Shown here: in pieces, positions 3,904-32,287 of the stretch | Position numbering within the stretch: position 1 is the first letter of the stretch | How the letters are laid out: the number at the start of each line of letters is the position of its first letter | Position numbers and translations under genes: made by a program | The notes under the pieces: generated by a model | What the model was told of the DNA's origin: nothing | Databases searched by the model: none | What the model saw: the letters and a program-made list of their open reading frames with translations, nothing else | NCBI GenBank assembly: GCA_021811085.1 | Contig: JAJZPQ010000006.1 | Coordinates: forward strand, 4,914 to 68,913 | Direction of reading: 5' to 3' | Length of the DNA: 64,000 nt | Source: Pseudomonadota bacterium | GTDB lineage: Bacteria > Pseudomonadota > Gammaproteobacteria > Burkholderiales > SG8-39

Positions 3904-5070
3904 ATGGAATTTGCACTGTCCGCGGAGCAGCAGGCGATACGCGAGGCGATCGCGAGAATCTGCGCGCAATTCGACGCCGATTACTGGCTGGCGAAAGACC
4001 GCGCCGGCGAATTCCCGCATGAACTGCATCAGGCACTGGCGCGCGACGGCTGGCTCGGCATCGCGATGCCGGAGGCCTACGGCGGGGCCGGCCTGGGGAT
4101 CACCGAAGCGGCGGTGATGCTGCAGACCATCGCCGAGTCGGGTGCAGGTTTCTCGGGCGCTTCGGCCGTGCACATGAACATCTTCGGCCTGAATCCGGTG
4201 GTGGTGTTCGGCACCGACGCGCAGAAGCGGCGCATGCTGCCGCCGCTGATCGCCGGACGCGAAAAAGCCTGTTTCGCCGTGACCGAGCCCAATACCGGCC
4301 TCAATACGACGCGGCTCAAGACGCGCGCCGTGCGCGCAGGCGGTCGCTATATCCTGTCCGGGCAGAAGGTGTGGATTTCCACGGCCCAGGTGGCCGAGAA
4401 AATGCTGGTCCTCGCACGCACCACGCCGATCGAGGAGTGCCGCAAACCTGCCGACGGCTTGACGCTGTTCTATACCGACCTCGACCGGCGCTATGTCGAA
4501 GTGCAGGAGATCGACAAGATGGGCCGCGCCGCGGTCGATACCAACCAGGTGTTCATCGACGGGCTGCCGGTGCCGGCCGAAGACCGCCTGGGTGAGGAGG
4601 GCAAGGGCTTCGACTGCATCCTGCACGGCATGAACCCGGAGCGCATTTTGATCGCGGCGGAGTCGGTCGGCCTGGGACGCGCGGCGCTGGCGCGCGCGAC
4701 GCAGTATGCGAAGGAGCGCGTCGTGTTCGATCGGCCGATCGGCCAGAACCAGGGCATCCAGCATCCGCTCGCGGAGTGCTGGATGGAACTGGAGGCGGCC
4801 AACCTCATGGTGTTCAAGGCGGCGAGCCTGTACGACGGCGGCCAGCCCTGCGGCGCCGAGGCGAACGCGGCCAAATACCTTGCCGGGGAAGCCTGCTTCA
4901 AAACCTGCCAGCAGGCGTTGATGACCCACGGCGGCTTCGGTTATGCCAAGGAATACCACGTCGAACGTTACCTGCGCGAGAGCCTGATCGGGCGCATCGC
5001 GCCGATCACCCCGCAGCTGATCCTGTGCTTCATCGCCGAGAAGGTTCTCGGTCTGCCTAAATCGTATTGA
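3904..5070 (+). CDS. acyl-CoA dehydrogenase
   Basis: MEFALSAEQQAIREAIARICAQF...GWLGIAMPEAYGGAGLG...VTEPNTGLNT, ending with an ACAD C-terminal helical domain. The true ATG at 3904 is in frame inside the 778-aa track ORF. Confidence 0.85.
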   Translation: MEFALSAEQQAIREAIARICAQFDADYWLAKDRAGEFPHELHQALARDGWLGIAMPEAYGGAGLGITEAAVMLQTIAESGAGFSGASAVHMNIFGLNPVVVFGTDAQKRRMLPPLIAGREKACFAVTEPNTGLNTTRLKTRAVRAGGRYILSGQKVWISTAQVAEKMLVLARTTPIEECRKPADGLTLFYTDLDRRYVEVQEIDKMGRAAVDTNQVFIDGLPVPAEDRLGEEGKGFDCILHGMNPERILIAAESVGLGRAALARATQYAKERVVFDRPIGQNQGIQHPLAECWMELEAANLMVFKAASLYDGGQPCGAEANAAKYLAGEACFKTCQQALMTHGGFGYAKEYHVERYLRESLIGRIAPITPQLILCFIAEKVLGLPKSY

Positions 5071-5150
5071 AGTGTCGCGAGGCAATCGGTACGGCTGGAC
5101 GATGAATGGTTGCTTGACGCGATTGGGCGTCGTTTGCTTGTTCGCGCCTC

Positions 5151-6410
5151 GTGGGGATTGATTTGCCAAGAATACCGACGCACACGCGCACCGCACTCAC
5201 TGTGCTAGGCATTTGCGTGGTGTTGAACATGATCGGGCGCGGCACCGCCGACACCTACGTCGTGTTCCTGCTGCCGCTGGAGCGCGATCTGAGCTGGACC
5301 CGTTCGCAGACGACCAGCGTGTATTCGATTTACCTGCTGGTCACCGGCCTGAGTTCACCCATCGTCGGCATGCTGTTCGACCGCTTCGGGCCGCGTGCGC
5401 TCTATACCTGCGGCATGACCTCGCTCGCCTGCGCCTATCTGCTCGCGCCGCAGGTGCACACGCTGTGGCAGTTCTATGCCACCGTCGGCGTGATGACGGG
5501 CATCGCCGCCGCCTCTCTGGGCATGGTGCCTTCGTCCAGCCTGATCAGCCGCTGGTTCCGCGAGCGCCTGGGCACGGCGATTTCGGCGGCTTTCGCCGGC
5601 CTCGGACTGGGGGCGCTGTTCATCGTGCCGGGCGTGCAGTACCTGCTGCAGACCCATGGCTGGCGCGAGAGCTACCAGATCATGGGCGGCGTACTGCTCG
5701 CCTTTGTGCCGCTGGTGTTCTTCCTGCCGTGGAGACGCTTCGCCGAAGGCCATCCGGAATACGACCAGCTGAAGCGCAGCAGCGTCGCGCCCGAGCACGA
5801 ATGGACCGTGCGCACGGCGATGAGAACGCGCATGTTCTGGGGCCTGGTCTGGGTATTCTTTTTCACTTCGGTCGGCATGTATACGATCATGGTGCAGACC
5901 GTGGCCTATCTGGTGGAGCAGGGTTTCTCCCCCATCGTCGCTGCCACCGCGTTCGGCACTTCGTCGATGCTGTCGGTGGTCGGCGTGCTCAGCACTGGGG
6001 CCATCGCCGATCGCATCGGCCCGCGCCGCATCGTCAGCCTGACTTTCGTTGGCAGCATCGTCGGCGTGACCCTGCTGCTGCTCATGACCTGGTTCCCGCT
6101 GCGCGGCCTGCTTATCGCCTACGTGCTTGCGTTCGGCATCTGCCAGGGTGCGCGCGGCCCGATCGTGTCCTCGATCAGCACGCGCCTGTTCGCCGGAAAA
6201 AACGTCGCCGCCATTTACGGCATCATTTTCGCGAGCAATGCGGTAGGGGCGGGCCTGGGCTCGCTGATGGCCGGGCTGCTGCACGATTTTTCCGGCAGCT
6301 ATCGGCCGAGTTTCGTGTTTTCGGTGTGCGCGCTGTTTATCGCCGGACTGCCGTTCTGGCGCGTACCGGAGTTGCGCGATTTCCGCATGCGCCACGGAAG
6401 CCGTCCTTAG
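5151..6410 (+). CDS. MFS transporter
   Basis: 419 aa with about 12 hydrophobic segments. An MFS loop motif (FDRFGPR) follows TM2. The start codon is uncertain. Confidence 0.75.
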   Translation: MGIDLPRIPTHTRTALTVLGICVVLNMIGRGTADTYVVFLLPLERDLSWTRSQTTSVYSIYLLVTGLSSPIVGMLFDRFGPRALYTCGMTSLACAYLLAPQVHTLWQFYATVGVMTGIAAASLGMVPSSSLISRWFRERLGTAISAAFAGLGLGALFIVPGVQYLLQTHGWRESYQIMGGVLLAFVPLVFFLPWRRFAEGHPEYDQLKRSSVAPEHEWTVRTAMRTRMFWGLVWVFFFTSVGMYTIMVQTVAYLVEQGFSPIVAATAFGTSSMLSVVGVLSTGAIADRIGPRRIVSLTFVGSIVGVTLLLLMTWFPLRGLLIAYVLAFGICQGARGPIVSSISTRLFAGKNVAAIYGIIFASNAVGAGLGSLMAGLLHDFSGSYRPSFVFSVCALFIAGLPFWRVPELRDFRMRHGSRP

Positions 6411-26341: not shown

Positions 26342-26417
<76 letters not shown>

Positions 26418-26454
26418 CACCGACCGGCAATTCTGGTTAGCACCAAGCCCTTTA

Positions 26455-26530
26455 GTCCCCATCGTCTAGAGGCCTAGGACATCACCCTTTCACGGTGAGT
26501 ACGGGGGTTCGAATCCCCCTGGGGACGCCA
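26455..26530 (+). tRNA. tRNA-Glu (anticodon UUC)
   Basis: GTCCCCATCGTCTAGAGGCCTAGGACATCACCCTTTCACGGTGAGTACGGGGGTTCGAATCCCCCTGGGGACGCCA has the anticodon loop CTTTCAC. Confidence 0.9.
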
Positions 26531-27830: not shown

Positions 27831-28139
27831 TTGCATCACAGGACCACACGGATCAACGAACGACAGGCCCCGCAGTTGACGGTGTGACCGCGACGACCTC
27901 TGCGAGTTCCATGCGCTACTACAAAATATTCACGCCGAGGTGTTTGCACTGCTAACACCTGATGCGATCGACTGGCGAGCGCGCAACGACTTCCCGCGCC
28001 GTCGGTATGTGCGCCCCTTTGCCAAACACAAGTGTCAAGCCGAATCGTGGCCTCGACGAAGCCATGAATCGGGGAGACAGCACGGCCGCGCCATGGAAAT
28101 ATGACTCCTCATTCCGCTACGAGCGATGAGGTGACAAAC

Positions 28140-28364
28140 ATGTCCGATCAATACCAGCAAGGGCTATCCATTCTTCGACGTAAGCAGGTCGAAGCCCGCA
28201 CGGGGCTTGCGCGCAGCACGATTTATCACCACATCAAGGCCGGCACATTTCCGCGACCGATCCCTCTCGGTCCCCGCGCGGTCGGGTGGCTCGAATCCGA
28301 CGTGAGCAACTGGATCGCCGAGCGGGTACGGATGGCGCGCGACGGTGCCAATCGCTCTGTTTGA
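28140..28364 (+). CDS. alpA: AlpA family phage/island regulatory protein (MerR-like HTH)
   Basis: MSDQYQQGLSILRRKQVEARTGLARSTIYHHIKAGTFPRPIPLGPRAVGWLESDVSNWI. A GAGG RBS lies 8 nt upstream. Confidence 0.8.
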   Translation: MSDQYQQGLSILRRKQVEARTGLARSTIYHHIKAGTFPRPIPLGPRAVGWLESDVSNWIAERVRMARDGANRSV

Positions 28365-28398
28365 TCGGATGCGCCTGGGGCAGTGGCACGAGGATGGC

Positions 28399-28998
28399 TC
28401 ACGCCGCGATTGTTGCGCGTGCGCCGGCCATGCCGTAGCGATCGAGCAGTCCCGTGTAGCGTACGGTGAAGTTCTTTTCTTCGGTCAGATTCTTGAACGT
28501 GGCCGACAGGCTGTCGCTGCGGTGCTCCTGCGGGGCGCCACCGGCTTGCCACAGGGCGTTCTGCAGCCCCTTGGACAACGTCTCGAAGCTCTCGCCACCT
28601 TCAACCACTTCCACATGCTCCCAGCACGAGAAGGCCAGCACGAAGTGGTACAGAATGTGCGCAAACGGCGCGTTGGCAATCGTGATGTGCAACTCGCCCA
28701 TCGCGGTGAAGTCCAACAGGCCACGATGGCCCGGCGCATGCTCTTGCGGGAAGAGCACTTCCTTGGGTGGTCCTTCCAGCGCGCGCCATTGCCGGACGTG
28801 ACGCTGCAGGGTGCGCAGCACGCCGTCGGGGAAGCTCTCGGGGTGATCGTCCTGGAGCTTACGCAGCAGCGTGATGGCCATCAGCTTGGTCGCGCTCTTG
28901 AGCAGCGGCACGACCTCATTGTCCCAGACCTGGGCAAACGGATCGGTTCGCGAGCGCCAATAGCGTCGGGGGGTTCTGTGAAGGCAACTTTGAGGCAC
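28399..28998 (-). pseudogene. 3'-truncated DDE (rve-type) transposase gene, possibly an IS21-like IstA type
   Basis: RRYWRSRTDPFAQVWDNEVVPLL..DGVLRTLQRHVRQWRA..GLLDFT..ILYHFVLAFSCWEHV..PQEHRSDSLSATFKN covers the N-terminal HTH and the first two catalytic Asp regions only. It ends about 35 nt from alpA. The family assignment is from memory. Confidence 0.55.
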
Positions 28999-29245
28999 TT
29001 CTGCTCCCGGCTTTCATCGAGCAACGCTTGCGCTTCTGCCGTGCCCGGCTCAAGCACCACGACGTCAAGCTCGTTTTCACTCGCTATCGCGATGATGCGC
29101 AAGTTCGCCAAACCCGGGTGATACGCCAGGATTCGGTGGCGCAGGCATCCCGATTACCGAGCGGATGCCACAACAGCTTCGGATACCTCGATTCGCATCG
29201 CATGATGACCGTGAAGCGCCCGGCCACTAGGCGTTACGGCGTTCA

Positions 29246-29347
29246 TCATTTCCAGTTTGCCAATATTTGTGACGCGCATCTCGACGTCTTGCTCTCCGCC
29301 GCACAGCACGTAACCCCGCGCTCACCGCGATTACGCTTCATCGCGCG
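29246..29347 (-). pseudogene. IS30-family transposase gene, distal fragment (continuation after the IS200-like insertion)
   Basis: Reads RAMKRNRGERG.. and then decays to a stop. Joining it to 31925..32038 restores ..NRQKSISRAMKRNRGERG.., the IS30-type HTH (xSxISRExxRN). Confidence 0.55.
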
Positions 29348-29368
29348 GCTAAACCAACATAGGATATC

Positions 29369-29385
29369 CCCCGGCTCTGCCGGGG
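29369..29385 (+). repeat. IS200-like left-end hairpin
   Basis: CCCCGGC-TCT-GCCGGGG, a 7-bp stem. The identical 17-mer occurs at 31901-31917. Confidence 0.75.
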
Positions 29386-29402
29386 AGGCAGTAGAAGTTT
29401 GA

Positions 29403-31313
29403 GTGCGCCGGGAGACCGGCAAGGAGTAGATGGTGCAAGTCCATTGTGATGAAGGCGTAGCGAGCCACATCAGCCCTGAGCCGTGCGCAGGCACCCGCGA
29501 GGGTGTAGGCGAAGCGTCGGCAGGGGAACGTGCAGGCCAGCCATTGAGCCGCGAAAGATACTTGATTTCGGGCGCCGACGCTGTTCAAACGGCGGAAGGC
29601 AACATGAACGGGTGCGCTCACGCGAGCGCCCGGACAGCCCGGCGTGGTCGGAGACCCTGGCATGCACGGACGCTCTTTGCGCGGGAACCGGGAGGTCTCC
29701 GGACTGGCCAGTGCGGCAGATGTGCGCTGGTCCGCATTGGGAAGGCGAGGAGCCGAAGCCAATGATGCACGGTCTGGAGAAGTCAGACTCCTCCATAAGA
29801 GCGAAGAAGTCGGCGAACAAACCTGGGCGACCGGGGGCGGAGTCGATGGAGCAAAGGGAGGGGACCAAGGAGAACACGGGAGAGTCACCCGCGAGCCGGA
29901 CACTGAGCCGGGAAATCGTGACTGGAGGGCTGGACCGTGTACGGCAAGCAGCAAGAGGCAACAAGAAGGAGCGGTTCACAGCGCTGATGCACCATGTGAC
30001 GATAGATCTTCTGAGGCAGGCGTACTACTGGCTTAAACGCAGTGCGGCCCCAGGGGTAGATGGCGTCACCTGGCATGACTATGAGGACAACCTAGAAGCG
30101 AAGCTCACCGATCTGCATACGCGCGTCCACCGTGGCAGTTATCACCCAATGCCATCGAGGCGCAAATACATCGCCAAGCCGGACGGGCGCAAACGCCCGC
30201 TCGGAATTGCCGCGCTGGAGGACAAGATCATCCAGCGAGCGGTGGTGGAGGTGCTCAATGCGATCTACGAGCAGGACTTCCTGGGGTTCTCGTATGGATT
30301 CCGGCCCGGGCGCGGGCAGCACGACGCGCTCGATGCACTGGCGGTCGGAATTTCGCAGCGGCACGTGAACTGGATTCTGGACGCGGACATCGCCGCTTTC
30401 TTTGATACGGTTTCCCACGACTGGATGCTTCGGTTCCTGGAACACCGTATCGGCGATCGCCGCTTGCTTCGCTTGATTGGCAAATGGCTCAAGGCGGGAG
30501 TGATGGAAGAGGGCGTGGTTTCAGCAACCGAGACCGGAACCCCGCAAGGGGCGGTGGTTTCACCAGCGCTAGCCAACGTTTATCTGCATTACGTCTTCGA
30601 CTTGTGGGCGCATCGCTGGCGGCAGCAGCAAGCCCGCGGTGCGGTTATCTTCGTGCGATATGCCGACGATGTAGTGGCGGGATTTGAGCACGAAGGAGAG
30701 GCCAGGCGCTTTCTGGTGGAGTTGCGGCAGCGAATGGAGAAATTTGCGCTATCGATGCATCCCACCAAGACGCGATTGATCGAGTTCGGTCGCTACGCGG
30801 CTGAGCGCCGAGGTAAGCGCGGTCTGGGTAAGCCGGCGACGTTCAACTTTCTTGGCTTCACGCACATCGCTGGACGGACTCAAAAGGGCCGCTTCCAGTT
30901 GATACGCAAGACCCGGCGTGATCGCATGCGGGCGAAGCTCAAGGCCATCAAGGAAGAACTACGACGGCGCATGCACCACTCCATTCCGCAACAGGGGCAG
31001 TGGCTGCGGCAGGTCGTGCGCGGCTACTTTGCGTACCACGCCGTGCCAACCAATCTCCAAAGTCTGTCGGCCTTTCGGTACTTTGTGGGGCGGCTCTGGC
31101 TGAAGACGCTGCGGCGTCGCAGTCAGAAGAACCGCTTCTCGCGGGACCGGCTTACCCGACTCGCTGCGGACTGGCTCCCTTCTCCGCGAATCCTTCACCC
31201 ATGGCCCGATGCCCGCTTTGTCGTCAAACATCCAAGGTAAGAGCCCAGTGCCCGAATGGGGCCCGCTGGGATCCGTGCGGGGGGTGCGCAGAAATGGGCA
31301 TCCCTACCGCGAT
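29403..31313 (+). mobile_element. bacterial group II intron (ribozyme plus RT/maturase ORF)
   Basis: The 5' end is GTGCG at 29403. A domain V-like helix with a 2-nt bulge (GAGCCCAGTGCCCGAATGGGGCCCGCTGGGATC) lies at 31241-31273. A domain VI-like helix (GGGGTGC/GCATCCC) has a bulged A at 31306, 7 nt before a ..GAT 3' end. The 3' boundary is inferred. Confidence 0.75.
29762..31240 (+). CDS. group II intron reverse transcriptase/maturase
   Basis: RT motifs RKYIAKPDGRKRPLGIAALEDKIIQ, TPQGAVVSPALANVYL and VRYADDVV (YADD) are followed by a maturase (X) domain. I see no obvious HNH domain. The start codon is uncertain. Confidence 0.9.
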   Translation: MMHGLEKSDSSIRAKKSANKPGRPGAESMEQREGTKENTGESPASRTLSREIVTGGLDRVRQAARGNKKERFTALMHHVTIDLLRQAYYWLKRSAAPGVDGVTWHDYEDNLEAKLTDLHTRVHRGSYHPMPSRRKYIAKPDGRKRPLGIAALEDKIIQRAVVEVLNAIYEQDFLGFSYGFRPGRGQHDALDALAVGISQRHVNWILDADIAAFFDTVSHDWMLRFLEHRIGDRRLLRLIGKWLKAGVMEEGVVSATETGTPQGAVVSPALANVYLHYVFDLWAHRWRQQQARGAVIFVRYADDVVAGFEHEGEARRFLVELRQRMEKFALSMHPTKTRLIEFGRYAAERRGKRGLGKPATFNFLGFTHIAGRTQKGRFQLIRKTRRDRMRAKLKAIKEELRRRMHHSIPQQGQWLRQVVRGYFAYHAVPTNLQSLSAFRYFVGRLWLKTLRRRSQKNRFSRDRLTRLAADWLPSPRILHPWPDARFVVKHPR

Positions 31314-31334
31314 CATTTAAGGGAGTCCACCGCA

Positions 31335-31380
31335 GAAACTTCCAACCGTGAGCCGCCAAAGCACACGAAAAGGGAGTTTC
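31335..31380 (+). promoter_or_regulatory. stem-loop sequestering the tnpA Shine-Dalgarno sequence
   Basis: GAAACTTCC (31335-31343) pairs with GGGAGTTTC (31372-31380) over 9 bp including one G-U. The 3' arm contains the SD just upstream of the ATG at 31384. Salmonella IS200 is known to occlude its RBS in the same way. Confidence 0.55.
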
Positions 31381-31383
31381 GCG

Positions 31384-31815
31384 ATGGACGAGTACGAAAG
31401 TTTAAGTCATACGAAGTACGAATGCATCTATCACGTGGTGTTCATACCGAAGGGTCGGCGCCGAGCGTTGTACGGGGAGTTGAGGAAACACCTGGGCGAG
31501 ATATTTCGGCGGTTGGCAGAGCAAAAGGAGAGTCGCATCGAGGAGGGGCACCTGATGTCGGATCACGTGCACATGATGATCCGGATTCCGCCGAAGTACG
31601 CAGTGTCGCAAGTCATTGGTTTCATCAAGGGAAAGAGCGCGATTCACCTGGCGCGGGTATACGGAGAGCGGAAGCGAAATTTCGTTGGGCAGAGTTTCTG
31701 GGCACGAGGGTATTTTGTGTCGACCGTGGGCAGGGATAAAGAGATGATTCGCGACTACATCCGGCATCAGGAAGAAGAGGACAAGCGGTTGGACCAGTTG
31801 AAGCTTTGGCAATAG
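31384..31815 (+). CDS. tnpA: IS200/IS605 family Y1 (HUH) transposase TnpA
   Basis: MDEYESLSHTKYECIYHVVFIPKGRR..SDHVHMMIRIPPKY carries the HUH motif, and WARGYFVSTVG carries the catalytic Tyr. Confidence 0.9.
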   Translation: MDEYESLSHTKYECIYHVVFIPKGRRRALYGELRKHLGEIFRRLAEQKESRIEEGHLMSDHVHMMIRIPPKYAVSQVIGFIKGKSAIHLARVYGERKRNFVGQSFWARGYFVSTVGRDKEMIRDYIRHQEEEDKRLDQLKLWQ

Positions 31816-31899
31816 GAGGGCCACCTTCAGGTGGCGACGAGAACTGGGGTCGCGTTAGCGCCCCCCATCAAGCCGCTTTGAGCGGCTCACAATTTAAGG

Positions 31900-31918
31900 C
31901 CCCCGGCTCTGCCGGGGG
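31900..31918 (+). repeat. IS200-like right-end hairpin
   Basis: CCCCCGGC-TCT-GCCGGGGG, an 8-bp stem. It is preceded by a second hairpin, AGCCGCT-TTG-AGCGGCT, at 31871-31887. Confidence 0.7.
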
Positions 31919-31924
31919 ATATTT

Positions 31925-32038
31925 ACTGATCGATTTTTGTCGGTTCATCACTCGGGCAATGTCGCTCTGATTATGTCCGGCTTTGTTGAGGATGGCAATT
32001 TGGTATCGTTCGTCTTGGGTGAGATGTGTGTAGTTCAT
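31925..32038 (-). pseudogene. IS30-family transposase gene, 5' fragment interrupted by the IS200-like element
   Basis: Hand translation from the ATG at 32038 gives MNYTHLTQDERYQIAILNKAGHNQSDIARVMNRQKSIS, the typical IS30-family N-terminal HTH. Confidence 0.7.
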
Positions 32039-32287
32039 TCCAGACAACTTTGACTTGGCGGTCGAGAGGCTCGGATGCTATCGTATCTCGCCGTCCCAAC
32101 CCGTTAATCAGAGTCGCACTTCAGTGTACGACCGAACAGGAACAGTACGTGCTTTCCTGTCGCACTGTCGCCACGGCGCCCGTCGCATGAAATCTCATTA
32201 TTGAGCTTGCCTCGCCGGAGGGGTCGCGGGCGACAAGATTTGTCGATGTGCTAATCGCCTGCGGCTAATCAGCTCTCGTGATGGCTT

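Follow-up and report, generated by a model that had tools for sequence, protein, structure and literature searches.

A 64,000-nt stretch of a contig from a Pseudomonadota bacterium (assembly GCA_021811085.1, contig JAJZPQ010000006.1, positions 4,914 to 68,913; this whole stretch is hereafter the window) carries three mobile elements nested in one another: a remnant of an IS30-family insertion sequence (IS) is split by an IS200-group IS, whose left end is in turn split by a group II intron. Such a nesting had been proposed from the letters of the sequence alone (hereafter, the original prediction) and was borne out by an ungapped alignment to an uninterrupted IS30 relative (contig L001), by family matches of the layers and by intron-less IS200 relatives (L003, L004 and L005). 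The same arrangement was found base for base on independent public contigs, namely L002 (Logan assembly, SRR13178629) and L163/L164 (ENA metagenome, ERZ27236928), together with further contigs of the neighbourhood. Given that these assemblies were built independently, the nesting is not an assembly artefact of the window. Its components are given below, with window coordinates and strand (LE and RE, left and right end of the IS200 element; RT, reverse transcriptase; EBS and IBS, exon-binding and intron-binding site; D5 and D6, intron domains 5 and 6; a slash within a sequence marks a junction or insertion point).

29316..29352, minus: IS30 remnant part B, encoding (I)SRAMKRNRGERG; IS30 homology ends at 29316
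29349..29352, plus: CTAA, IS200 target and left cleavage site, belonging to the IS30 sequence and not to the IS; present in the L001 empty site
29353..31926, plus: IS200-group IS with its intron, 2574 nt (663 nt without the intron)
29368..29385, plus: LE subterminal hairpin, 15 nt from the IS start
29390..29402, plus: intron target in the 5' exon (IBS2 AGTAG, 29390-29394; IBS1 GTTTGA, 29397-29402)
29403..31313, plus: group II intron, 1911 nt, GTGCG...CGAT, in the same orientation as tnpA
~29557-29562 (29558), plus: EBS2, ATACT, pairing with AGTAG at 4 of 5 positions
29585-29590, plus: EBS1, TCAAAC, pairing with GTTTGA at 6 of 6 positions
29762..31240, plus: intact intron-encoded RT/maturase, 492 amino acids (aa)
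31241-31273, plus: D5
31277-31310, plus: D6, with a bulged A at 31306
31384..31815, plus: tnpA, Y1 HUH transposase, 143 aa
31900..31926, plus: RE hairpin (31900-31918) and 8-nt tail ATATTTAC, the IS ending after TTAC
31927..32122, minus: IS30 5' remnant part A: left end (GAAGTGCGACTCTGATTAACGGG...), leader of 84 nt and coding sequence from the start codon at 32038 to base 1 of codon 38

The outermost layer is read on the minus strand, where the open reading frame (ORF) from 32038 (MNYTHLTQDERYQIAILNKAGHNQSDIARVMNRQKSIS...), correctly recognised in the original prediction as the start of an IS30-family transposase, matches HTH_38 (E 7.9e-9). The family assignment is sound, since longer homologues of this N-terminal peptide run into the NCBIfam IS30 model NF033563 (E 2e-9); JGI likewise labels homologues as IS30 family. 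The homology shared with L001 sets in at exactly 32122 (GAAGTGCGACTCTGATTAACGGG, presumed to be the IS30 left end) and ends at 29316, after codon 50, and the match in a tblastn search of the window with the homologue P0003 ends at 29315. In total 233 nt survive, that is, the left end and 50 codons, and neither a DDE (rve) domain nor a right end nor any other IS30 sequence was found anywhere in the 64-kb window. Thus, what the locus shares with the IS30 family is the N-terminal HTH_38 with its ...S(T/I)ISRxxKRN... motif, and the sequence is a remnant and not an element, which would comprise an rve domain and two terminal inverted repeats.

Excision of 29353..31926 leaves an ungapped 233-nt alignment to L001 with ~94% identity and a score of 205. 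The insertion had originally been placed at 29348..31924, borders that score 195; neither these nor the equally long alternative 29351..31927 reach the score of 205, and both align to L001 only with a 3-nt gap. The insertion itself therefore stands, with its left border shifted by 5 nt and its right border by 2 nt. On the minus strand the excision joins ...ATCA/TTAGC... across 29352/31927 and restores ...NRQKSIISRAMKRNRGERG, so that the helix-turn-helix motif is indeed recreated, but as the 11-residue KSIISRAMKRN instead of the expected KSISRAMKRN. The corresponding peptide is KSTISREMKRN in L001, and all homologues have the same length here (KS(T/S/G)I(S/G)RE.KRN). In a narrow sense, the expectation that intact relatives would read KSISRAMKRN is refuted by their one additional residue, which indicates that the junction had been misplaced by a few nucleotides and not that the idea was wrong.

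All 27 database homologues of the IS30 N-terminal peptide (P0001-P0027) are fragments of 47-105 aa, and several homologues (including some among L001, L166 and L168) stop near the same GERGY point or adjoin unrelated genes; a full-length transposase with this N-terminus was not retrieved among the 27. For annotation, this means that "IS30 transposase" calls for this family in search results refer to short, mostly truncated fragments. In another contig, L167 (Logan, SRR12072165), the IS30-like fragment lies in a perfect palindrome with mirror-image gene order, for which a misassembly at a repeat is the most likely cause.

To delimit the IS200-group element, species-representative genomes were scanned with the TnpA of the window, yielding 80 loci with TnpA 74-94% identical, of which the nearest relatives belong to Betaproteobacteria metagenome-assembled genomes (MAGs) and related soil or groundwater bacteria. 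The ends given here come from the aligned relatives of these loci and from a tandem junction in L018 (see below). The element consists of tnpA only, without tnpB, as in the IS200 group, and the gene probably begins at an ATG behind a GGGAG ribosome-binding site, although the listed ORF started from a GTG at 31348. Its product matches Pfam Y1_Tnp (E 7.7e-37) and the NCBIfam model transpos_IS200 (NF033573, 142.9 bits, cut-off 55). It has PDB relatives in 2ec2 (2.6e-27) and in IS608 TnpA, 2a6m (3.3e-17), and its HUH motif (HVH) and catalytic tyrosine (DYIRHQ) are in register with the 2ec2/2f4f alignments. The 18-nt hairpin CCCCCGGCTCTGCCGGGG occurs exactly twice in the window (29368-29385 and 31900-31917), in direct orientation, with a chance expectation of ~0.1; the RE copy was also picked up in a terminator-like scan. 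A Y1 HUH tnpA with identical, directly oriented subterminal hairpins was therefore rightly predicted, while the hairpin-to-end distances, asymmetric as claimed, are 15 nt at LE and 8 nt at RE and not 21 and 6. Terminal inverted repeats are absent, which, like subterminal hairpins at unequal distances from the tips, is characteristic of the IS200/IS605 family, and the hairpins and the LE/RE architecture are kept at both ends of the aligned relatives.

The termini can be set to the nucleotide. At RE, the hairpin and the subsequent ATAYTTAC are shared by all aligned copies, whose flanks cease to be alike immediately past TTAC, so the window element ends at 31926. At LE, conservation apparently starts at CTAA or CTAG, 13-15 nt 5' of the hairpin, the flanks diverge just before the IS start, and CTAA, CTAG or TTAA directly precedes the LE in nearly all of ~30 LE variants. 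We regard this tetranucleotide as the target and not as part of the IS for three reasons. First, in L018 two copies lie head to tail as ...ATATTTAC/TGAAATGGGAG..., without the CTAA seen before solitary copies of that IS, the RE-LE junction reading TTAC/TGAAATGGG. Second, L001, where the site is empty, already contains CTAA (GCGGCTAA/TGGTTG). Third, covariation across the LE variants links base 4 of the tetranucleotide to the base just ahead of the LE hairpin, CTAA and TTAA occurring with T and CTAG with C, as predicted by the pairing of guide and cleavage site in the IS608 model. The termini expected in this lineage are ACCAAC... on the left and ...TTAC on the right. Since the window reads GCGGCTAA/IS...TTAC/TGATCG, no target duplication accompanied the insertion, in agreement with the original prediction.

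With IS608 and ISDra2, the paradigm of "peel-and-paste" transposition, the element shares the Y1 HUH TnpA, subterminal hairpins, the absence of inverted repeats and of a duplication, and insertion 3' of a tetranucleotide that is recognised by guide bases on the 5' side of the hairpin. It differs in having tnpA without tnpB, CTAA or CTAG as left target and two mutually identical hairpins. The RE end TTAC occurs together with AAAG or AAGG 5' of the RE hairpin, which we take to be the pair used at the left end of IS608. For an uncharacterised IS200 lineage, the locus thereby provides a nucleotide-exact anatomy, with its target (CTAA or CTAG), its end (TTAC) and its guide-target covariation.

The Y1 gene could instead be a domesticated REP (repetitive extragenic palindrome)-associated tyrosine transposase (RAYT) with REP hairpins, and the IS30 pieces two unrelated fragments. 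A weak match to the RAYT model (40 bits) and the GC-rich hairpins on both sides of the gene fit this proposal, but the match lies under the model cut-off of 80, against 142.9 bits for the IS200 model, the hairpin is found just twice in 64 kb and in direct, not inverted orientation, and whole-element copies (~20 in one genome) sit in different flanks. Given also that the IS30 pieces join in an ungapped alignment, we consider a RAYT origin to have next to no chance of being correct and treat the gene as that of an IS.

Some further observations concern the IS200 family at large. The genome with ~20 near-identical copies of a related IS200, in different flanks, is the Acidobacteriota MAG CAWINY01 (L017-L035). 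At two of its loci copies are arranged in tandem, in L018 just past the right end of the first copy (~4545) and in L025 with the second LE/RE at ~4548-5202, and they meet in ...ATATTTAC/TGAAATGGG..., the junction that a circular transposition intermediate would be expected to have. As to excision and reinsertion of a single-stranded circle, these RE-LE junctions are only suggestive. Within the window element, GTGAGCCGC in the 5' untranslated region (UTR) of tnpA (31348-31356) matches, as an exact reverse complement, GCGGCTCAC, which directly precedes the RE hairpin (31882-31890). Both motifs are nearly invariant in IS200 relatives, and a long-range pairing in RNA or single-stranded DNA is possible. 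In Ectothiorhodospira haloalkaliphila (L043 and L045), a further instance of nesting is seen in this IS family, an IS200 being interrupted directly ahead of tnpA by 1.8-3.5 kb of inserted DNA (LE at 491-531 and 2140-2180, TnpA match from 4001). These LE-tnpA insertions were considered as further cases of the intron and rejected, being a different, non-intron element.

The innermost layer is the intron, which lies 17 nt 3' of the LE hairpin, 70 nt 5' of the tnpA start and 50 nt from the LE tip. Its borders are exactly 29403..31313, because the intron-less IS200 copies L003, L004 and L005 read through the site as ...GGCAGTAGAAGTTTGA/CATTTAAGGGAGTCC... (AGTTTGA before the slash). The length of 1911 nt obtained in this way agrees with the 1.9 kb originally attributed to the intron, and the intron-less copies, predicted at about 666 nt, exist among the relatives, the window IS measuring 663 nt without its intron. 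The ribozyme was recognised by Rfam RF02005 (183.2 bits, gathering 49; 29436-29657), with the full model covered (D1-D4); the Rfam label D1D4-6 is not known to correspond to one of the intron classes (A-F, CL, ML). About 40 related introns from metagenomes, used for ends, length and D5-D6, have the same ends and a length of 1906-1958 nt, mostly 1908-1914 nt, and both D5 and D6 follow the family consensus with compensatory changes. The intron-encoded protein reaches 355.6 bits with TIGR04416 (cut-off 300) and aligns over its full length to relatives, with RVT_1 over residues 137-367 and a weak GIIM (maturase) match over 395-461. No HNH endonuclease was matched in the RT, and there is no room for one.

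The pairing of intron and target was studied in an alignment of 29 introns with known 5' exons. In 23 of them intron and exon covary, the last six exon bases being perfectly complementary to one fixed alignment column (EBS1), and a second column (EBS2) pairs with exon positions -13 to -8. After splicing, the ligated exon junction is predicted to read GTTTGA/CATTTAAGG. A class IIC-like insertion behind a terminator hairpin was ruled out by the clear EBS2 and by relatives inserted at sites devoid of hairpins. In the intron-less copies, the insertion point falls within TTGA/CA, a perfect -35-like hexamer (29399-29404 / 31314-31315 in the window, ~400-410 in L003). The hexamer might be the -35 box of a tnpA promoter that the intron disrupts, but this is no more than an unverified remark, no -10 partner being predicted in L003 or the window.

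The association of intron and IS200 appears, from the contigs compared, to be recurrent and specific for the intron lineage, a point that the original prediction had missed. A close intron clade, with RT 86-95% identical, was taken from a large protein collection. Seven of its contigs were inspected, representing five insertion contexts besides the window, since L175 and L176 repeat the copy of L174 (L175 with the same right flank). The identities of these introns to the window intron over the full length are the following.

L169: 95.3%
L172: 89.5%
L170: 87.9%
L174 (L175 and L176, same copy): 87.9%
L173: 86.7%

Every contig of the clade with usable flanks has the 1911-nt intron at the identical nucleotide of an IS200 LE, followed by the IS200 5' UTR and, wherever the contig extends far enough, also by tnpA (TnpA identity to the window of 85% in L172 and 81% in L173). 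The flanks of these hosts differ wherever readable, and both the CTAA/T-guide and the CTAG/C-guide sublineages occur. Among 80 more distant introns (RT identity of 73% or less), none lies in an IS200 left end and their EBS/IBS are different. One of these, in L086 (2110-2319; RT 73% identical), has another target and an IS200 fragment in reverse orientation ~150 nt downstream, so that both types of element are found together there even though the specific insertion is absent. The intron-IS200 junction was also searched for in the IMG/VR viral contigs, with no match, and no further copy of any layer was found elsewhere within the 64-kb window.

Could the intron have entered by a single accidental (ectopic) insertion, the nesting being a chance piling-up of mobile DNA? 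The composite is single-copy, the EBS2-IBS2 pairing is imperfect and the 80 genome-derived IS200 loci are all free of the intron, as such an accident would have it. However, members of this intron clade occupy the identical nucleotide in five more, independent IS200 hosts, whose IS copies differ in sequence and in flanks, and EBS1 is a perfect 6-bp match, so a one-off event is highly improbable.

Recurrence alone would also be accounted for by an old composite of IS200 and intron that spreads by DNA transposition, with the intron hitch-hiking and the intron-less relatives derived by repeated precise loss. The first 50 nt of the LE and the whole RE are intact, so that TnpA could still move such a composite, and composites occur in at least six different flanking contexts. 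Against this, introns are 87-90% identical in pairwise comparisons between composites while the IS parts are 77-79% identical, and a closer intron-less relative exists for each host IS (91.5% for the window with L003, 92.2% for L173 with L010). Many independent precise losses would be needed to explain this mismatch. Moreover, no composite was observed at two sites, and IS608 excision reportedly drops with element length, which would penalise a 2.6-kb element. Spread as a composite is thus improbable, though less so than a single accident. Given that the introns are more alike than their IS hosts and that these have nearer intron-less relatives, the data point to an intron lineage homing to a conserved IS200 site, and the simplest reading is that the home site of the clade would be the conserved IS200 AGTAG-AA-GTTTGA/C, with several IS200 lineages entered by retrohoming.

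Taken together, we consider it very likely that an IS30 remnant received an IS200 element 3' of CTAA, into the left end of which an intron from an IS200-homing clade then retrohomed. The proposed history would start with an IS30-family element that is reduced to its first 233 nt in a decayed patch of mobile DNA. The IS200 element would then have been inserted into IS30 codon 38, immediately 3' of CTAA on the plus strand and without duplication, which fits single-strand peel-and-paste transposition by a Y1 HUH TnpA, the tetranucleotide on the LE side and the TTAC at RE presumably being read by pairing with bases 5' of the two hairpins. The intron, in turn, probably reached the IS200 left end by RNA-guided retrohoming, and its clade (RT ~87-95%) seems to have moved between diverged IS200 lineages instead of riding with one of them. 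Since its RT is devoid of an endonuclease, priming would probably come from nascent lagging-strand DNA. Splicing of any transcript across the left end would restore the tnpA 5' UTR, and because the first 50 nt of the IS, with guide and hairpin, are untouched, the IS should remain recognisable to TnpA.

The orientation of the elements was compared with the strand asymmetry of the region. The GC skew of the plus strand is +0.02 to +0.06 over all 64 kb. If this G-rich strand is the lagging-strand template, as presumed, both the top strand of the IS and the sense strand of the intron lie on it. This orientation is favoured by IS200 top strands and by endonuclease-less introns. In 36/52 related loci (p=0.008), the G-rich strand is likewise the one that holds the top strand of the IS; the flanks are short there, and the role of the strand is presumed from the skew.

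Several points weigh against this history. On the intron side, the Rfam D5-D6 model RF00029 gave no match at E<=0.1, and in D5 a G-A apposition lies beside the AGC triad, though this is typical of this intron family. EBS2 and IBS2 form only 4/5 pairs in the window and in most clade members, and promoter prediction gave no sigma-70-like candidate, whether across the insertion site or in the sequence ahead of it. As to distribution, 0/80 IS200 loci from the species-representative genomes have the intron, so that occupancy is low. That the clade occupies IS200 only is a statement about seven contigs and five contexts besides the window, which is short of proving exclusivity. Exact protein matches of both RT and TnpA were confined to this single locus; recent mobility is thus not demonstrated. 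Finally, splicing, retrohoming and transposition are all predicted from known family behaviour.

A stronger proposal, which we regard as rather unlikely although somewhat less so than the spread of a composite, is that the intron clade would be an obligate "parasite of a parasite" fitted to the single-strand lifestyle of IS200. Its 14-nt target lies immediately 3' of the left hairpin on the top strand of the IS, which would be the strand that becomes accessible as lagging-strand template and leaves as a single-stranded circle. An intron devoid of an endonuclease could then use replication forks to reverse-splice directly into IS200 DNA, or might even enter the intermediate of transposition, and the IS would carry the intron to new genomes, giving a two-tier mobile system over diverged IS200 lineages and hosts.

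Known cases of introns in IS elements go back more than 20 years. RmInt1 of Sinorhizobium meliloti homes into ISRm2011-2, is endonuclease-less, recognises its target by EBS1/EBS2 and prefers the lagging-strand template; its host IS is a DDE element of another family, and the likeness drawn here to the present intron is one of features. Three group II introns of Thermosynechococcus (T.) elongatus lie in ISEL1, an IS200-family element (PMC2882425). The ISEL1 case and the present one have in common an intron lineage homing to a conserved site of an IS200-family element and the use of the IS as a harmless multi-copy landing place. They differ in the host and in the intron clade, here full-length and with its own RT, and in that the clade described here is found in several diverged IS200 lineages in different organisms and not in copies within one genome. 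The comparison with ISEL1 is at the level of the IS family. Given this precedent, the nesting is of an already known type, group II introns at conserved IS sites being documented, and the present clade adds a case; no description of this intron clade was found in the searchable literature.

Another combination of a self-splicing intron with an IS200/IS605-family transposon is seen in IStrons, where a group I intron is fused to IS200/IS605 genes in one chimeric unit (Tourasse et al. 2014, PMC4227781). In IStrons, the ends of the element are the intron ends and the whole element is spliced out, whereas here a group II intron is internal, splicing would remove the intron only, and intron and IS have separate evolutionary histories, so that the composite is not an IStron.

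As a single locus, the nest is ordinary, mobile elements accumulating in dispensable DNA. The clade, so far seen at one conserved IS200 site in several diverged lineages, may serve as a natural system for endonuclease-less introns and for how these use single-stranded DNA and other transposons to persist.

The surroundings of the nest contain the following features.

26342-26530: tRNA-Ala and tRNA-Glu genes, 1.6 kb before the AlpA gene
28101-28364: AlpA-type regulator gene (E 3.6e-20)
28395..28986, minus: internal IS21-family istA fragment, truncated at both ends (NF033546, E 2.1e-34)
28987..29315, strand not assigned: stretch of ~330 nt separating the IS21 fragment from the IS30 remnant, with no family or BLAST match

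On the other side of the patch lie a methyltransferase gene and biotin-synthesis-type genes (dethiobiotin-synthetase-like and aminotransferase domains). At the DNA level, the istA fragment shows 72-74% identity to istA genes of plasmids; it sets in 94 nt inside the gene and covers ~nt 95-680. It is an internal fragment only and not an IS21 element, which would have istA, istB and terminal repeats. It corresponds to the rve-type transposase fragment that the original prediction had noted nearby. This fragment is present, and the IS30 gene is indeed degraded, to the point of being a 50-codon remnant, but the two do not abut, as had been stated, ~330 nt lying between them. The repeated invasion of one site suggested on that basis is nonetheless reasonable, as the AlpA gene, the IS21 fragment, the IS30 remnant and the IS200 with its intron occur together, and the region between the tRNA-Ala/Glu genes and the biotin genes is a graveyard of mobile DNA. 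The tRNA/AlpA region looks like the decayed edge of an integrated element; no att-type direct repeats of the tRNA genes bounding an island and no recognisable integrase were found. As for the ~330-nt stretch (28987-29315), it had no match among protein families, plasmid DNA and plasmid-encoded proteins. A degenerate second RT fragment, considered at 29028-29315 on the plus strand because of an "FTRYRDD" stretch, was dropped, with no match to a family, to plasmid DNA or by tblastn. The stretch has a GC content of 58%, slightly under that of its surroundings, and shows antisense in-phase open frames on both strands.

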